Shown: piece by piece, positions 28,164 through 47,127 of the stretch | Position numbering within the stretch: position 1 is the stretch's first letter | Layout of the letters: each line of letters begins with the position of its first letter | Source: Escherichia phage vB_EcoM_RZ | DNA length: 64,000 nucleotides | Strand: one strand, 5' to 3' | Sequence record: MW598459 | Notes under the pieces: generated by a model | Database searches by the model: none | What the model saw: only the letters and a program-made list of their open reading frames with translations | What the model was told of the DNA's origin: nothing | Program-made: the position numbers and the translations under genes

Positions 28164-29174
28164 TTAACGATAATAGGAATTGTGGTTGTCAAGGTATACC
28201 TCTTCAACAAACTTGTCCCAGAACTTCATGTCTACCTTATCAGGCATACCATTCTTAGCAGCCTGGATGGCCAGAACTTCAACTAAATCGACAGTATCTT
28301 CAAGAAGTTCTTGAACTTCTTTAAATGGTAATTCACCAGCTTTAATCAGCTTAATGATAGAGGCTTCACGCAATGGGAATACCAAGTCACCTGTTTGGTA
28401 GATTTCCATCAATTGATACCCTGCACGATAAGCATGGCTCAGTGCTTTCCAATCAATACCTTCGTTAGCTTCTGCTTTACGAGCACGTTCACCATATTCG
28501 GCGTCGAGTTTATTCAGAGATTGCTTGAGCTCGATTAATGACAGAGTAGTTTGGTACTTACGTCCGAGAACAGTATAGAACGTTTGTGGACCTGTTTTCT
28601 CATGGTTATGGAATACCCATTCACAGAACTCGTTTTCAGGGAGTCTGTGTTTGATATCTTCTACCTTAGTACGACGAAGTCTATCAGGGATTCCTTCTTG
28701 ATAATCGACCCACTGTTCAGGAATCTGGTTAACAATTGCCAGTACACCACGCAGTGCAGCCAATCGAGAACCTTTAACACCATATTTGGAAGCTTGCTTA
28801 CGGACGTACCCCAAATAGGCTTTCATGTTAGTTGTATAGAACCGCGAACGGTTGTCTTGAATAAACTTCCATACATCTGGTAAATCGGATTTGACAACCA
28901 GGTTAGCCGGGGTGTGAATCATGTCCAGAGCAACGGTTTCGCCTTCGGCTGCCAGTTTAAAGAAATATTTCAGGCTATAAAGTTCATGGTCAATATCGTC
29001 TTTTGTATTTTTGGTAGCCGTGTTATTCGTGTTCAGGTTTGTATGGTTCATCGCGGTTCCGAGCAGGATATCTCGCGGATGAGGAACAAAGATTTCTTTA
29101 AAATCAACATCAGATTCCGGAGTGCTTGTTCCATAAAGATGGCTACCGAAGTAGCCTTTCATAACTGTTCTCAT
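28164..29174 (-). CDS. Pol-beta superfamily nucleotidyltransferase-like protein, hypothetical function
   Basis: Track ORF 28164..29204; ATG at 29174 gives MRTVMKGYFGSHLYGTSTPESDVDF (GS-x9-SDVDF nucleotidyltransferase motif); family not established. Confidence 0.55.
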   Translation of the reverse strand: MRTVMKGYFGSHLYGTSTPESDVDFKEIFVPHPRDILLGTAMNHTNLNTNNTATKNTKDDIDHELYSLKYFFKLAAEGETVALDMIHTPANLVVKSDLPDVWKFIQDNRSRFYTTNMKAYLGYVRKQASKYGVKGSRLAALRGVLAIVNQIPEQWVDYQEGIPDRLRRTKVEDIKHRLPENEFCEWVFHNHEKTGPQTFYTVLGRKYQTTLSLIELKQSLNKLDAEYGERARKAEANEGIDWKALSHAYRAGYQLMEIYQTGDLVFPLREASIIKLIKAGELPFKEVQELLEDTVDLVEVLAIQAAKNGMPDKVDMKFWDKFVEEVYLDNHNSYYR

Positions 29175-29623
29175 TTTTTGTCCTCGAAGTGGATTACAGG
29201 ACACATCTTAGATTTACGAGCTTTAATGTATTGAATAACGATGTTTTCTTTAGTTTCCTTTCCTTCACGTTTGGCTAGAATACGTTGCCATTCCTTTTCT
29301 TCTTTACGTAAATCATACCATGCGTGCAAATTCATCGCACCTAATGCCAAACCAATGGATAGCGCAATAATAAGAGCTATTGCAATCAACCCTAAAACAA
29401 ACCCTAGACTCAACAGAACAGGAGTACTTAATACAAAGAAATGCTCTAATACACCAGCTCCTGCAACAGTTAATCCAAAAAGCGTACTACCTGCAACAAC
29501 AGCACAAGCAAAACAAGCCCAAACCATTTTCCAGAAGTAAGCACACAAAGAGTGTGGTCGAGAATGACGGTCATAAAAACGGTCGTGTAATTTAACGTGC
29601 CAAGAGTTTGCATTGATAATCAT
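29171..29623 (-). CDS. Hypothetical membrane protein (150 aa, about three TM helices, basic C-terminal tail)
   Basis: Track ORF; stop overlaps the nucleotidyltransferase ATG. Confidence 0.5.
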   Translation of the reverse strand: MIINANSWHVKLHDRFYDRHSRPHSLCAYFWKMVWACFACAVVAGSTLFGLTVAGAGVLEHFFVLSTPVLLSLGFVLGLIAIALIIALSIGLALGAMNLHAWYDLRKEEKEWQRILAKREGKETKENIVIQYIKARKSKMCPVIHFEDKK

Positions 29624-38893: not shown

Positions 38894-39116
38894 GTTTCCA
38901 TGATTGGTTAAAAATATCGCTCATTAAAAATTCAAGTCTATTTTCCAATGAAGGGCTTTCACTACTAGAAACTTGAACCATGTAGTCAGCAATAGGTCGG
39001 AACATATCCAAGTCAGTTTCTAAATCATCTTTGATTTTCTCTTCTGATGTACCTGTATCATAGGAATACAGATAAGAATCGCATGACTCAGATTTAATAT
39101 AAATTGCAATACTCAT
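38880..39116 (-). CDS. Hypothetical acidic protein (78 aa)
   Basis: Track ORF. Confidence 0.4.
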   Translation of the reverse strand: MSIAIYIKSESCDSYLYSYDTGTSEEKIKDDLETDLDMFRPIADYMVQVSSSESPSLENRLEFLMSDIFNQSWKRDDE

Positions 39117-39700
39117 TTACGACATTCCTCAATAAAGGAGTTCAATGTATTTTTCTTAGTGATATCGTCATATACCTTTTTAACTTTAGAAATACGAAAA
39201 GGTACTTCAATAACCATAGTCCATAAAAATGATGCAATAAGCCCAGCGAGAGCAGTAGAAAAGCACGCACCCATTACAGCTACGGGTGCTTCATTTTTGC
39301 CTGTCAAGAAAAACCACAGGAATGGTAAAAATAAGATTCCAGCCCAGGCATAAAACCTGGAACAAATTAACTTATCAAATTCATCACTCCAGGTACGAAA
39401 TCCATATTTCTTGCTATAAGAAATTAATGGGTCGGGTGTCTGTTCTTTGAGCGGTTCTGGTTGATGCCCATTAATGATGTATCCCATTTTATATTCCTTA
39501 ATTAAAAGCTCTTTCACATGACGATTGCATCGCGACCAATCAACGTTTTCCACCTTGATTCCTTCATCACCATCATCAAGGTTCGCCCAATATTTTTTGG
39601 TAATCATAAATTCGTCTCTTGATACAATTATACCTGTATTTTCTGCCCGGCGGATGAAGTTTACATCAACACCCATGCAGCCAGTTTCATAAAGGGCCAT
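39113..39700 (-). CDS. Hypothetical membrane protein (195 aa) with C-terminal FIEEC motif
   Basis: Track ORF; C-terminal TM pair then ..NSFIEECRK. Confidence 0.45.
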   Translation of the reverse strand: MALYETGCMGVDVNFIRRAENTGIIVSRDEFMITKKYWANLDDGDEGIKVENVDWSRCNRHVKELLIKEYKMGYIINGHQPEPLKEQTPDPLISYSKKYGFRTWSDEFDKLICSRFYAWAGILFLPFLWFFLTGKNEAPVAVMGACFSTALAGLIASFLWTMVIEVPFRISKVKKVYDDITKKNTLNSFIEECRK

Positions 39701-40386
39701 TACCAGCCCTCCATAGGGAATTCCAGATATACTTGAGCATTAACGCGGATTTCATTTGTAATCTTTTTAACACGGTCGGTATTACGAGACACACGACCAA
39801 ACCAGCGCCAACCGTTACTTACTGCGCGAGAACCCGTATGCCATGTCTGCCAATCAAACTGGAGCAACGTGCGGTCAGGAGCATCCCACTTGGTTAATTC
39901 ATTGGACTCAATTTTTTCCAGAACTTCTTTATGCCACTGGCGATAGATAAGTTCGCCTTCAGGAATCTGACTAAATTGCGCAGTTCCGGTTGCAAAATAA
40001 GTAGGACACACATCAGCGTTAACAAGACCAAGAATATGTTCAGAATGGTAACGAGGATTGTCATAATCAGGTTGCCCTGCAGTAATAAAGTGTTGACCAA
40101 CCGGAATATCCGGGCGTGGTACATCGTCATGGTGATAACCTGGGATAGCAGGATACCAACCAGGCATCAGCATATGAACCCGAGAATCAAATACAACCTG
40201 GTCGGTGTTCCAATCATCCGGCAGACTCATAATAAAGCTACGAGTAATAGGACCGCCATTGTCAAAAGCGAAAGCCAATGAGCTGTTGAAGAACATAGTT
40301 TCGTTTTTGATTTTATCATTAGAAATTTTACCAGCGAAACTGCCTACTGCATGAGCTTGAGAATTAAAAGTTTTTGGACCGTTCAT
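39700..40386 (-). CDS. Hypothetical protein (228 aa)
   Basis: Track ORF. Confidence 0.5.
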   Translation of the reverse strand: MNGPKTFNSQAHAVGSFAGKISNDKIKNETMFFNSSLAFAFDNGGPITRSFIMSLPDDWNTDQVVFDSRVHMLMPGWYPAIPGYHHDDVPRPDIPVGQHFITAGQPDYDNPRYHSEHILGLVNADVCPTYFATGTAQFSQIPEGELIYRQWHKEVLEKIESNELTKWDAPDRTLLQFDWQTWHTGSRAVSNGWRWFGRVSRNTDRVKKITNEIRVNAQVYLEFPMEGW

Positions 40387-40445: not shown

Positions 40446-41405
40446 TTATTTTTCGAAAGGGCGAATTAAATGCTGGTTAGCTTTGAAACGTTTAACATAG
40501 TCTTCGTGACCCAGGGTGTTGTACATATTAACCACTTCCTGATAATGTTCCCAGGCATACTCACGGAACCATCCAGAAGTAATGGAGGTACAGACTTTTT
40601 CCAGCGCAATATGGAAGCTCACGGATGGAGAGATATTGAACTCATTGGGAACCTGCGAACGCTCCAGAGCGAGTACACATGCTTCTTCATAAACCCCTGC
40701 CAGTTTAATAATCTCAGGGAGTGCTTCAAATTTTTCACGCGAGGTCATAACTTCTGAATCATCCTTCATATAGAACTTATATGCAGGTTTATCAGCAAGC
40801 GCCACGGCCTCGTGGATGGAGTCATGGTCAAGGGTATAGATTGTATCATTAAAGAAAGTTTTCTTGCCCACGTCTAGTTTAGGGTGACTATATGACAATG
40901 TTTCTGCCTGGCGCTGCAGCATGATTTTATGCAGTTCGTCATTAAGAACAACACCCTTATTGCGAAGGTAATTAATATGACTCATTGTCTTCAGGAAGAA
41001 TGGATTGTTCTTCAGGTAACGATGAGACAGTTTAATTGCCAGACAAATATCAGGAGTCGCCCAATAGAAACCTGTAAGACGGTCTTTCTTAATATGATTT
41101 TCAGCGTATTTCAAGAGACGATAACTTGAGGTGAAATCTTCATCTTGAAGCTCACCAGTAATTTCTCGTACGTTAGTCAGGGCACGGACAATATAAGCTT
41201 CAAAATAGGTTTCTTTGCCATTGTACATACATTTAAAAGCTTGGACATCAGGGTTATCCACAGGAACATGAGCACCGAACATACGTGCTTTAAAGTGGTT
41301 CCAGGAGCCCTGGTCAGCGATAAAGTCCCAATCAGAGTTTTCAATTTTCTGACTTTCAATCAGACCAGCGTTATGTAATGCACGAGAACCAATAACTAAC
41401 ATCAT
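40446..41405 (-). CDS. Hypothetical protein (319 aa) with N-terminal GS...SDWDF nucleotidyltransferase-like motif
   Basis: Track ORF; MMLVIGSRALHNAGLIESQKIENSDWDF; early promoter upstream. Confidence 0.5.
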   Translation of the reverse strand: MMLVIGSRALHNAGLIESQKIENSDWDFIADQGSWNHFKARMFGAHVPVDNPDVQAFKCMYNGKETYFEAYIVRALTNVREITGELQDEDFTSSYRLLKYAENHIKKDRLTGFYWATPDICLAIKLSHRYLKNNPFFLKTMSHINYLRNKGVVLNDELHKIMLQRQAETLSYSHPKLDVGKKTFFNDTIYTLDHDSIHEAVALADKPAYKFYMKDDSEVMTSREKFEALPEIIKLAGVYEEACVLALERSQVPNEFNISPSVSFHIALEKVCTSITSGWFREYAWEHYQEVVNMYNTLGHEDYVKRFKANQHLIRPFEK

Positions 41406-41506: not shown

Positions 41507-41734
41507 TTATTTTCCTAACGAAATACGAGTAGGTTTTTTGCCAAAATATTCTTCATAAGAACCATCTAAACGACCCGCTTTAGACCGACAGTATGAATCG
41601 TACTTTTTGTAATAAGTCATCTCAGTATTATAACGCGGGTGTCTATCAGCCATAATAATACTTAATGGCCAACCTTTGGCATAATCGCGAAGACCATTTA
41701 TTTTACTAATGTATCTTTTCTTTAATTTTAGCAT
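41507..41734 (-). CDS. Hypothetical basic protein (75 aa)
   Basis: Track ORF. Confidence 0.4.
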   Translation of the reverse strand: MLKLKKRYISKINGLRDYAKGWPLSIIMADRHPRYNTEMTYYKKYDSYCRSKAGRLDGSYEEYFGKKPTRISLGK

Positions 41735-41952
41735 GAGCTCGGGTACCAGATTTTACCGTCGGCGCGGGCAACGAAGGTACGACCAGCTTCTTCGCCGTAA
41801 CAAGAGCTATTCAGCCAATCTTCAAGACGAACTTCACCGTCATAATCATCTAGCTCAACACCAAAATCCTGAGCAGAAGCCATATCTTTTACTTTCTTAT
41901 ACAGGGCAGCCAGTTCAAGAGCAGCTTTTTCTAATTCGTTAATATCAGTCAT
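41728..41952 (-). CDS. Small acidic protein, paralog family member (C-terminus ..WYPSSC)
   Basis: Track ORF; C-terminal motif related to the three upstream paralogs. Confidence 0.45.
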   Translation of the reverse strand: MTDINELEKAALELAALYKKVKDMASAQDFGVELDDYDGEVRLEDWLNSSCYGEEAGRTFVARADGKIWYPSSC

Positions 41953-41961
41953 TTTTATTCC

Positions 41962-42174
41962 TTAGCATTCGTAAGAGGAGGACACCCAAGAGGTACCACT
42001 AATTGTAATACAACCATTATAAAGCGTAATATGTCGTTCTAGGTCACGAACACCATCAATGTAGATATCAGCTTCTTCGCGTTCTTCTTTACAAATCTGG
42101 ATAACGTTTTCAATAGCTGCCGCGGCAGTACGGATTGCACAATCTAATTCACGAGACATATAATTCCTTAACAT
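41962..42174 (-). CDS. Small protein, paralog family member (C-terminus ..SWVSSSYEC)
   Basis: Track ORF. Confidence 0.45.
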   Translation of the reverse strand: MLRNYMSRELDCAIRTAAAAIENVIQICKEEREEADIYIDGVRDLERHITLYNGCITISGTSWVSSSYEC

Positions 42175-42449
42175 TCAGAAGAGGAGGACACCCAACCGCC
42201 ATTTTCCAGGTCAGTTGTATAGTCATGAGTGTTAACAATAGCCCATTCAGGATGGCCATATTCTTCCCAATGGGCAAGGTCAGCTTTCAAGGCACCAGGA
42301 GAATAATAGTCACCGCCCATACCGCGAGCAGGGTATATATTAAAATGAGTCTCATATTTGTTTGCAATTTCCTCGGCACGCCGAATAGCTTTATGGATGT
42401 CATTTACTGCGTTAGCCAGTTCTTTATTTTTACGGTAATCATTCATCAT
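42168..42449 (-). CDS. Small protein, paralog family member (C-terminus ..GWVSSSSEC)
   Basis: Track ORF. Confidence 0.45.
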   Translation of the reverse strand: MMNDYRKNKELANAVNDIHKAIRRAEEIANKYETHFNIYPARGMGGDYYSPGALKADLAHWEEYGHPEWAIVNTHDYTTDLENGGWVSSSSEC

Positions 42450-42458
42450 AACGTTTCC

Positions 42459-42749
42459 TTAGCACATTGCCGAAGAGGAGACCCAAGCACCAACTGTAAC
42501 GACACCGTTTTCAACTTCACCGCCGTTGTTTTCAATTTCATCTTTAAACCACTGGGAGCATTCATAACCGACAGGATAATATGTACGGCCTGAACCATAA
42601 TCACCGGTACCGAATTGGATACCATATTCATCTGCGATTTCTTCGCAGTGTTTTTCAATTTCAGAGGTCTTATTTAGAAGAGAATAGATGGCTTTTTCTG
42701 CAGATTTCTCATCATAATACTTGGGGATAGCAATTTCAATTTTATTCAT
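42459..42749 (-). CDS. Small protein, paralog family member (C-terminus ..AWVSSSAMC)
   Basis: Track ORF. Confidence 0.45.
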   Translation of the reverse strand: MNKIEIAIPKYYDEKSAEKAIYSLLNKTSEIEKHCEEIADEYGIQFGTGDYGSGRTYYPVGYECSQWFKDEIENNGGEVENGVVTVGAWVSSSAMC

Positions 42750-43099
42750 GATTTACATTCCTTAATAAAGGTTTCAAGGTCATTACGTTTTGTTTTGTCT
42801 AGGAACTTATTATACTCAGCCATTGCCGAAGCATATCTCTTACGGCTAGGAGCATTCACTGCATTTGTGTGACAGATATCATAAACAACCGGGATAAAAT
42901 AAGCCACAACAGCCGGAGCAATTATCATAAAGAAGCCCATCTCAATAGGCATGACTCCCTCGATTGCAGCCATAACCGTGGTCATTACCAGACCAACCAA
43001 ACCACCGAGCATACCGGTGACAATTCCCAATAATAAATTGCCGCCAATATCATATTCAGCCAATTGATAAACATGTGATGCAAGACTAGGCCGTTCCAT
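42746..43099 (-). CDS. Hypothetical membrane protein with C-terminal FIKEC motif
   Basis: Track ORF 42746..43192 trimmed to internal ATG at 43099 adjacent to the upstream stop; several TM helices. Confidence 0.4.
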   Translation of the reverse strand: MERPSLASHVYQLAEYDIGGNLLLGIVTGMLGGLVGLVMTTVMAAIEGVMPIEMGFFMIIAPAVVAYFIPVVYDICHTNAVNAPSRKRYASAMAEYNKFLDKTKRNDLETFIKECKS

Positions 43100-43445
43100 T
43101 ACGAACCTCCTTAATAAATTCTTCGGCACATTTAATTTTGTGCTCTTCTTGTAGGGAAACACATTTTTGTTCCCACTCTTTAACTCGTCCACGATATCCT
43201 TTATTCATATGATTTTGATGCCATACATTTATCAAAATCATACTCAGGACTGTAATAAAAGGAGCTGCGATTATTAGCGCCCAGGCAACTCCAACACTAA
43301 TGATATCCATATCCCCACAAACCACCATCATTATAACCCCAACAATGCACATGGACAAAGCTCCAAATGGAGGCATAAGGTCTTTATCAATCTTGTCTGC
43401 GTATACAAATTTTTCTGGTTTACTTGGCAGATATAACGTTCGCAT
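43086..43445 (-). CDS. Hypothetical membrane protein with C-terminal EEFIKEV motif
   Basis: Track ORF 43086..43481 trimmed to internal ATG at 43445. Confidence 0.4.
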   Translation of the reverse strand: MRTLYLPSKPEKFVYADKIDKDLMPPFGALSMCIVGVIMMVVCGDMDIISVGVAWALIIAAPFITVLSMILINVWHQNHMNKGYRGRVKEWEQKCVSLQEEHKIKCAEEFIKEVRNGTA

Positions 43446-43992
43446 TTTGAACCCCTTTAGCATATTCACGACATTCAGCAATAAAACGATTAAGCTTACG
43501 TTTCCGTTTACGACCCTCTAATGTATACTCAGCCGCCAAATCAAGAAGCTCATCTTTATCATAATTTTTAATATCAGTATAAGTTGGGCGGCGGTCAACC
43601 ATTCCAAAGTGGTCACCATTTTCCAACATCAAATAACACACCAAATGGTCATCATCGTCCGCATTAATAAGCTGCTTATAATCACTTGGTTCATTTAACG
43701 CATACACAGAATAACTCAGCCCAGCGAATTCCACTCGTTGAATACCCAGATTTACGTCAATAATTTCCAAGGCATCTGCAAAAGAAAGGTCTTCAGCTAA
43801 AGCAAAAATAAAAGGCAATTTGGTAGTATCGCCGCGACTTGTTGTTCTTCTTAAGAAATCATTGGAATAGCCCAAGTCGCGGCGGATTCTATAAAGAACT
43901 GTGTTAGTTTCAGTGGCAAGACCACTACCGCCAAACCATTCCACATTTGATAAAAGATTATCATATAAAGTCATAATTTTCTCCTCTCCCAA
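43420..43992 (-). CDS. Hypothetical protein (190 aa) with basic stretch RKRKRK and FIAEC motif
   Basis: Track ORF. Confidence 0.45.
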   Translation of the reverse strand: MGEEKIMTLYDNLLSNVEWFGGSGLATETNTVLYRIRRDLGYSNDFLRRTTSRGDTTKLPFIFALAEDLSFADALEIIDVNLGIQRVEFAGLSYSVYALNEPSDYKQLINADDDDHLVCYLMLENGDHFGMVDRRPTYTDIKNYDKDELLDLAAEYTLEGRKRKRKLNRFIAECREYAKGVQNANVISAK

Positions 43993-46973: not shown

Positions 46974-47050
46974 TGGTCGGGGTGGTGGGATTCTAACCCA
47001 CAACCTACGGTTTAGAAGACCGTTGCTCTATACAATTGAGCTACACCCCG
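46974..47050 (-). tRNA. tRNA-Arg (anticodon UCU)
   Basis: Hand-folded cloverleaf: acceptor CGGGGTG/CACCCCG, D-arm GCTC..GAGC, anticodon stem ACGGT/ACCGT with loop CUUCUAA, T-arm GTGGG-TTAGAAT-CCCAC, 3' ACCA encoded. Confidence 0.75.
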
Positions 47051-47127
47051 GGTGGCCCCATCCAGATTTGAACTGGTAACCTTTCCCTTATGAGGGGACT
47101 GCTGCTAACCAATTGAGCTACAGGGCC
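47051..47127 (-). tRNA. tRNA with CAU anticodon (Met or Ile2)
   Basis: Hand-folded: acceptor GGCCCTG/TGGGGCC (two GU pairs), anticodon loop CUCAUAA, T-arm CCAG-TTCAAAT-CTGG; abuts tRNA-Arg. Confidence 0.65.

Follow-up and report, generated by a model that had tools for sequence, protein, structure and literature searches.

A predicted two-lobed nucleotidyltransferase of phages is encoded downstream of small acidic proteins with a Trp/Ser/Cys tail

The T4-like phages have been studied better than any others, yet for most of their early accessory genes no function is known. What might one such gene do? The question is raised by a 64,000-nucleotide stretch of DNA from Escherichia phage vB_EcoM_RZ (sequence record MW598459; hereafter the window). 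The phage is of the T4 type and belongs to the VR7-like genus Gaprivervirus. The window also holds the T4-like lysozyme gene e, nudE and denV, and the T4 order is kept. Our subject is a gene on its minus strand, the target gene. The original prediction, made from a GS...DxD motif near the N-terminus, was that its product resembles nucleotidyltransferases (NTases). Since a second protein of the window (28164..29174) carries a similar motif, related activities of the two had been suggested as well. We therefore asked whether the target is an NTase, whether it is kin to the second protein and what it might act on.

40446..41405, minus strand: target gene, 319 amino acids (aa), two-lobed Pol-beta-superfamily nucleotidyltransferase-like protein (DUF7277 plus DUF7275; PHROG 2141)

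Results

The target protein has the predicted fold and the conserved residues of a nucleotidyltransferase

The open reading frame (ORF) is real. Its ATG start at 41405 is preceded, at a distance of 8-9 nt, by a Shine-Dalgarno sequence (GAGG), and its product begins with MMLVIGSRALHNAGLIESQKIENSDWDF, exactly as quoted in the original prediction. Escherichia phage EAWsc9 encodes the very same protein (100% identity), and phage VR7 one with 94% identity. The motif resemblance to the second protein exceeds chance: when the first 80 residues of all window ORFs of at least 100 aa were scanned for the pattern h-G-[SG]-x(8-20)-D-h-[DE]-h, 2 of the 82 ORFs matched, namely the target and the comparison protein (shuffled proteins gave 0.1 matches on average). 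The spacing had been called longer than typical, and rightly so. Across 261 diverse homologs, from which all conservation figures were derived, GS and DxD are mostly separated by 14-19 residues, against a canonical 9-13, and the long gap is a trait of the family.

Two Pfam domains, DUF7277 (aa 2-101; E 4.5e-26, 91.8 bits, cut-off 27) followed by DUF7275 (aa 120-305; E 1.1e-75, 254.1 bits, cut-off 27), both score above the gathering score, and the target is thus a full-length member. It also matches PHROG 2141 (E 3e-147), to which no function is assigned. Among the homologs, G6 (98%), S7 (96%), D25 (98%), D27 (99%) and K125 (100%) are conserved, and position 69 is Glu in 93% and Asp in 5%. That is, the motif residues are under strong purifying selection. 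Together with a model built by AF2 from a 33-sequence alignment (pLDDT 89, pTM 0.81), these data gave the following elements:

41094..41405, minus strand: N-terminal lobe, aa 1-104, predicted alpha/beta NTase core beta1-alpha1-beta2-alpha2-beta3-5 (AF2 secondary structure, DUF7277)
41385..41390, minus strand: G6-S7, hG[GS] motif at the predicted beta1/alpha1 junction (conservation)
41325..41333, minus strand: D25-W26-D27, putative metal-binding DxD on beta2 (conservation; model strand 25-31)
41199..41201, minus strand: E69, candidate third catalytic carboxylate, predicted strand 64-73 (conservation; strand from the model)
40479..41054, minus strand: C-terminal lobe, aa 118-309, predicted to be all-helical, DUF7275 (model and conservation)
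41031..41033, minus strand: K125, invariant Lys 100 residues past the DxD, candidate equivalent of the MenT motif III Lys by spacing only

In the model, VIGS (aa 4-7) spans the end of a strand (2-5) and the beginning of a helix (6-12), and the layout of GS, DxD and E69 in the N-terminal lobe is the canonical Pol-beta nucleotidyltransferase arrangement. The predicted structure is an alpha/beta sandwich that resembles solved Pol-beta members, so that all four sequence and fold hallmarks of the superfamily are present in the model. Absence of a Pol-beta fold had been named as the observation that would speak against an NTase; the AF2 model and the structure searches both point to such a fold. The best structure match was the MenT1 toxin (8an4; 145 residues aligned, score 8.2), followed by TglT/MenT3 (6j7n, 7.3), ANT(2'') (4xje, 7.1), MenT4 (6y56, 6.5), LnuA (4wh5, 6.3), an NTase-like protein (5uvd, 6.1), a putative NTase of H. 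pylori (4ok0, 6.1) and TM1012 (2ewr, 5.5). Foldseek likewise ranked MenT1 first (E 7e-4, probability 1.00, 189 aligned columns of the 195-residue chain), with other Pol-beta-fold enzymes after it. As judged from the model, the nearest structural neighbours of the target are MenT-type toxins. The structural scores are moderate, but the two programs concur with each other and with the conserved catalytic signature, and we consider a Pol-beta fold and a catalytic role of the predicted protein very likely. PDB sequence searches with the protein and with the family profile gave no match apart from a spurious one to photosystem I.

The helical C-terminal lobe is much more conserved than the N-terminal lobe. 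Among homologs that are otherwise about 40% identical, K125, H128, K139, T140, R165, D193, H194, D195 and H198 as well as E240, E241, E248, R249, K270, S274, S277, G278 and R281 are 95-100% identical, most of them 98-100%. Beyond the MenT-type helical bundle, this lobe had no match in the PDB. The arrangement H128...H194-D195...H198 had prompted a reading as an HD domain, which we rejected since neither fold nor profile matched. A LanC-like reading also found no fold or profile match, and C243 is conserved in only 61% of the homologs.

The enzyme family is effectively phage-only

A word-index search returned 2,062 homologs, and an exhaustive HMMER search of 1.84 billion representatives yielded 1,582 clusters at 50% identity. 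The 150 matches listed were all about 300 aa long with the same two-domain architecture, and among them this profile search revealed no bridge to a known family. Straboviridae with the enzyme infect Escherichia, Klebsiella, Enterobacter, Serratia, Aeromonas and Acinetobacter; further homologs are encoded by Phapecoctavirus, by Pseudomonas Otagovirus, by Vibrio, Streptomyces and Gordonia phages and on jumbo-phage contigs. Scanning one genome per species for 185,579 bacterial and archaeal species gave five loci, all on contigs of metagenome-assembled genomes, and four of these contigs are phage-like (73-167 kb). The family is thus effectively phage-only.

Two homologs from actinophages are shorter. 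Those of Streptomyces phage BillNye (248 aa; L004 4004-4750) and Gordonia phage ClubL (263 aa; L005 3809-4600) have a reduced N-terminal lobe that still carries VGS..DVDF or IGS..DFDL. The BillNye gene lies 2.2 kb from a polynucleotide kinase gene, and the ClubL gene 1.2 kb from a cluster of eight tRNA genes.

The literature searched held nothing on DUF7275 or DUF7277, and NCBIfam and PADLOC scans gave no meaningful match for the target. A few GenBank records already name homologs "(putative) nucleotidyltransferase", and the fold assignment itself is therefore not new. Many small ORFs of the EAWsc9 record (PQ341120) bear implausible names: "malate synthase" and "transposase" stand on ORFs about 75 aa long, and "ovule protein" and "type IV secretion system protein VirB3" occur as well. 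Its label "nucleotidyltransferase" on the target is therefore weak independent evidence.

Small Cys-tailed proteins are encoded upstream of the enzyme

Upstream of the target gene and on its strand, four tightly packed ORFs encode small proteins with similar C-termini:

42459..42749, minus strand: small acidic protein 1, 96 aa, ends WVSSSAMC (tail codons 42462-42485), phrog_899
42168..42449, minus strand: small acidic protein 2, 93 aa, ends WVSSSSEC, phrog_899
41962..42174, minus strand: small protein 3, 70 aa, ends WVSSSYEC, phrog_4882
41728..41952, minus strand: small acidic protein 4, 74 aa, ends WYPSSC, phrog_899

No other ORF of the 64-kb window has a W...S-S...C ending. We analysed the linkage in 85 enzyme-encoding loci (L001-L085) from very different phages. 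The strict motif W-x-[SPT]-S(1-3)-x(0-3)-C formed the C-terminus of 191 same-strand ORFs. The ends of 171 of them fall into the 2 kb upstream of the enzyme gene, and only five of the ORFs lie downstream; four ORFs on the opposite strand had the motif. A looser motif, W-x-x-S(1-2)-x(0-3)-C, was found in 234 of the 1,534 stop-to-stop ORFs of the 3 kb upstream window versus 16 of the 19,716 in the remainder of these loci (odds ratio 222). One to five tail ORFs per locus, arranged in tandem, were located on the same strand within 3 kb upstream in 78 of the 85 loci, and in 18 of the 22 enzyme clusters at 60% identity. The linkage of enzyme and tail proteins is strand-specific and near-universal. 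It persists at enzyme identities of 40-55% and with unrelated surrounding genes, for example in Phapecoctavirus AV125, Otagovirus phiPsa397, Aeromonas and Acinetobacter phages and contigs of more than 350 kb.

Among the 215 unique small proteins the median length is 83 aa and the median charge -8, and 98% are net-negative; the definition of the motif itself makes their Trp, Ser-Ser pair and terminal Cys invariant. Since the codons of the tail serines mix TCN and AGY, selection acts on the protein and not on a DNA element. Neither phrog_899 nor phrog_4882 has a Pfam match or a known fold. The T4 genome was examined at 1-50 kb and at 62-78 kb, which takes in the syntenic e-segB region; neither the enzyme gene nor tail proteins were found there. 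Nothing on the tail family or on its pairing with the enzyme was found in the literature searched. The enzymes make up a line of NTases exclusive to phages, with a putative acceptor lobe of its own that is very highly conserved and with a family of conserved partners; the pairing appears to be new. In our view the balance tips modestly towards a functional link between the enzyme and the tail proteins.

Several variants of the tail were seen. Small acidic protein 4 bears the motif twice, as an internal DWLNSSC and then at the end (YGEEAG...KIWYPSSC). This duplicated form recurs in other phages, for example in locus L032 (...DWNSSSCYGEDE...SSWVQSSC) and in a 'CYGEGDDGF..W.SSSC' subclass. In locus L087 the tail ends ...WNSSGGPACW, with one extra residue past the Cys. 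An apparent natural fusion of tail and enzyme from that locus (P0347, 377 aa; L087 80-1240, metagenome contig ERZ23498405 scaffold_61451) turned out to be a gene-calling artefact. In the DNA, a stop at 338-340 is translated as Gln in P0347 and the enzyme starts with a GTG at 353, which suggests gene calling under an alternative genetic code.

The second GS...DxD protein belongs to another family

The comparison protein lies outside the module formed by the target and the tail array:

28164..29174, minus strand: homolog of T4 NrdC.11, RlaP family (PF10127, E 3e-13; phrog_388)

The coordinates and the motif given for it in the original prediction were correct, and its sequence reads ...GYFGSHLYGTSTPESDVDF. 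The longest ORF opens with a GTG at 29204 (346 aa); since NrdC.11 homologs (332-337 aa) begin at the position equivalent to ATG 29174, the latter is the true start. The pairwise and profile alignments that had been proposed as a check gave no homology beyond the superfamily. BLASTP of the two proteins yielded an E-value of 13, and hhalign of the two family alignments a probability of 0.16%, pairing nine columns only (..SD[WV]DF). In a Pfam profile search the target had no match to PF10127. The two proteins share the hGS..DxDh signature, and both are encoded by accessory early-region genes of the same phage, but their C-terminal domains are unlike. The distribution of RlaP NTases follows that of RNA ligases, and their predicted role is the restoration of nucleotides in RNA repair (PMC7824862), whereas the target goes with tail-motif proteins. 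Since the superfamily motif is all they have in common, nothing points to a common activity. The NTase interpretation of the target is borne out by its predicted fold and conserved residues, while its kinship with the NrdC.11 protein beyond the superfamily, and with it the step from two GS...DxD proteins to related activities, is not supported. Annotators should be wary of assigning two GS..DxD proteins to one pathway just because a single genome encodes both. Many database records misname the NrdC.11 family "thioredoxin", apparently carried over from the neighbouring nrdC.

Other genes around the module

Two further ORFs adjoin the enzyme gene:

39700..40386, minus strand: 228-aa downstream neighbour, phrog_1843, labelled phytanoyl-CoA dioxygenase in EAWsc9
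41507..41734, minus strand: 75-aa basic ORF between the tail array and the enzyme gene, phrog_7065

We rejected an obligate pairing of the enzyme with the downstream dioxygenase-like gene, which was present in only 25 of the 85 loci. The 228-aa protein contains a PGYHHDD stretch. In two Aeromonas phages (L035, L036) it is 78% identical, compared to only 45% for the NTase-like protein; it is therefore much more conserved or separately exchanged. The 75-aa ORF is limited to close relatives (9 of the 85 loci) and hence probably not a core part.

A conserved linkage to tRNA genes was also rejected. Of the 30 T4-like loci, 28 have tRNAs within 10 kb of the enzyme gene, but of the 55 distant loci only 6 do, and the proximity of tRNAs therefore reflects synteny and not a conserved association. 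The only two tRNA genes of the window (Arg-TCT and Met-CAT) are adjacent at 46974-47127 on the minus strand, 5.6 kb upstream of the target; T4 carries eight tRNA genes as well as rnaC and rnaD at the syntenic place. On either side of the module lie predicted membrane proteins (39113-39700, 42746-43192 and 43086-43481, minus strand) with similar C-termini (...FIEECRK, ...FIKECKS and ...FIKEVRNGTA), and a 190-aa ORF at 43420-43992 has ...FIAECREYAKG... near its C-terminus. Two of the flanking membrane proteins match phrog_2203, one of them weakly. Proteins with these endings may represent a further family of paralogs in the e-segB region, with T4 e.2/e.3 as relatives. In a promoter/terminator scan, promoter-like sites were not above chance (16 seen, 16.2 expected).

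Discussion

The model and the conservation suggest that the target is probably a catalytically competent, phage-specific NTase with the two-lobed build of minimal NTases of the MenT/AbiEii type. We propose that its N-terminal lobe (GS, DxD, E69) would bind a nucleoside triphosphate and Mg2+ and catalyse the transfer of a nucleoside monophosphate to a hydroxyl. The helical C-terminal lobe, with K125, H128, K139, R165, DHD..H, EE, ER and K..S..SG..R, would line the cleft on the side where the acceptor binds. The enzyme may work as a module with the upstream array of small acidic tail proteins, most likely recognizing the W-x-S-S-S-x-x-C-COOH tail and O-nucleotidylylating one of its serines, a modification that could activate or inactivate these small early proteins, or prepare the tail for additional reactions. 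A model of one enzyme with many substrates fits because there are several paralogous tails per enzyme and an invariant tail is matched by an invariant lobe. We infer the activity, the tail substrate and the serine acceptor, and give this full mechanism of serine nucleotidylylation a probability of roughly one third.

Pol-beta NTases use hydroxyl nucleophiles, also on proteins, as in the case of GlnE, GlnD and MntA (the last from the HepT-MntA type VII toxin-antitoxin system). These enzymes transfer AMP or UMP from a DxD NTase core to the hydroxyl of a protein side chain, and the partner gene of MntA is adjacent to it; their known acceptors are Tyr, not Ser. The likeness to the target is a mechanistic analogy only, with no specific sequence or fold match found. 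The only match to a MntA profile (E 0.012) belongs to the NrdC.11 homolog, not to the target.

Several observations weigh against tail modification. The closest enzymes of solved structure have tRNA 3' ends or antibiotics as their substrates, and not proteins. Linkage of genes, taken by itself, does not tell a substrate from a regulator or a co-factor, and the 85 loci are not independent, since many have T4-like synteny in common. Furthermore, the enzyme can exist without tail genes nearby: the homologs of BillNye and ClubL keep GS..DxD and have no tail ORFs upstream, these ORFs are also missing upstream in three other loci (L050, L052 and L062), and a fourth (L030) has a tRNA-like sequence upstream instead. 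Finally, in an AF2 model of one small protein, residues W89-S91 are part of a beta-strand and not of a free tail, and the last residues are of low confidence.

As the main rival explanation, the target might instead be a MenT-like nucleotidyltransferase that adds nucleotides to the 3' ends of host or phage RNA or tRNA, be it for host shut-off or for repair or masking of tRNA ends hit by defence systems. The acidic upstream proteins would then be inhibitors or regulators, analogous to MenA1, a small antitoxin encoded upstream of MenT1 that blocks its active site (PMC10435456). The predicted structure, whose best match is MenT1, a member of MenT/AbiEii (DUF1814, PF08843), and the basic C-terminal lobe speak for this explanation. 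So does the spacing of K125: the motif III Lys of MenT1, MenT3 and MenT4 is found 96-109 residues past the Asp (PMC10435456), and K125 lies 100 residues past D25, an equivalence by spacing only. However, the Asp of motif IV, unique to DUF1814 and located 15-22 residues past the motif III Lys (PMC10435456), is not evident in the target, where positions 139-147, chosen by spacing, hold no conserved acidic residue and K139 and T140 occupy this place instead. There was no match to PF08843 at E-values up to 1 and no AbiE match in the PADLOC scan. The C-terminal lobe is twice as large as that of MenT/AbiEii and has its own invariant residues (DHD..H, EE, ER, KVCTSITSGWFRE). The family occurs in virulent phages, as opposed to cellular toxin-antitoxin or abortive infection loci, and has tail-motif arrays as upstream partners in place of MenA or AbiEi antitoxins. 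Up to five paralogous 'antitoxins' with an invariant Trp/Ser/Cys tail would be unlike antitoxins, and the tRNA linkage vanishes outside the T4-like synteny block. We therefore regard RNA-end modification as rather unlikely.

An NTase for small molecules, similar to ANT(2'') or LnuA, would adenylylate a hydroxyl of a metabolite, an antibiotic or a signalling nucleotide and could, for example, inactivate an anti-phage compound or an immune signal. Both enzymes are among the structure matches listed above. ANT(2'')-Ia (4xje) and LnuA (4wh5), however, are proteins of 160-180 aa with small acceptor pockets and no DUF7275-like lobe, share 6-10% identity with the target and are encoded by resistance genes, not phage genes. 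With an indirect link to the small proteins at most, this explanation leaves the linkage with the tail proteins unaccounted for and seems improbable.

Another route would resemble that of peptides made by ribosomes and modified after translation (RiPPs). Nucleotidylylation or phosphorylation of a tail Ser would be followed by elimination to dehydroalanine and attack of the C-terminal Cys, giving a lanthionine-type ring, with DHD..H and EE/ER of the C-terminal lobe as putative catalysts of elimination or cyclization. The invariant Ser-Ser and the terminal Cys are 1-4 residues apart, as in lanthipeptide logic, several precursors per enzyme are typical of RiPP loci, and the second set of invariant acid, base and His residues in the C-terminal lobe is not needed for nucleotidyl transfer. 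Yet this scheme is purely inferential and, we think, quite improbable. PDB searches revealed no similarity to LanB, LanC, LanM or LanKC folds, no LanC-like Cys-Cys-His zinc site is evident given the poorly conserved C243, and the small proteins (70-96 aa) appear folded and unlike leader-core peptides. In the WxPSSC variant, moreover, Ser and Cys are adjacent. The literature searched held no phage RiPP-like system of this type.

That the target is an inactive or purely structural NTase-fold binding protein, as the long GS-to-DxD gap might indicate, is highly improbable, since pseudo-enzymes normally lose catalytic residues whereas here all of these positions have stayed conserved, at 96-100%, in about 1,580 clusters at 50% identity, the reduced actinophage forms included.

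Taken together, one very common phage gene, with about 1,580 clusters, is placed in the nucleotidyltransferase superfamily, with the tRNA-modifying MenT toxins as its nearest neighbours in predicted structure. The enzyme is now tied to a second uncharacterized family, the small acidic proteins with a Trp/Ser/Cys tail, and this pairing makes its function directly testable. Should RNA ends be its substrates and the small proteins its regulators, phages would carry a counterpart of the MenT/AbiE toxins, of relevance to the shut-off of translation and to defence that targets tRNA. If the tails are its substrates, phages would use a new protein modification in host takeover. More broadly, though on balance doubtfully, the DUF7277-DUF7275 NTase may covalently modify tails in a widespread, phage-exclusive system, by serine O-nucleotidylylation or by activation towards a Ser-Cys crosslink. 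Such a system would span the about 1,580 enzyme clusters, from T4-like, rV5/phi92-like and Otagovirus to Acinetobacter, Aeromonas and jumbo phages, and would constitute a previously unrecognized class of post-translationally armed phage effectors.

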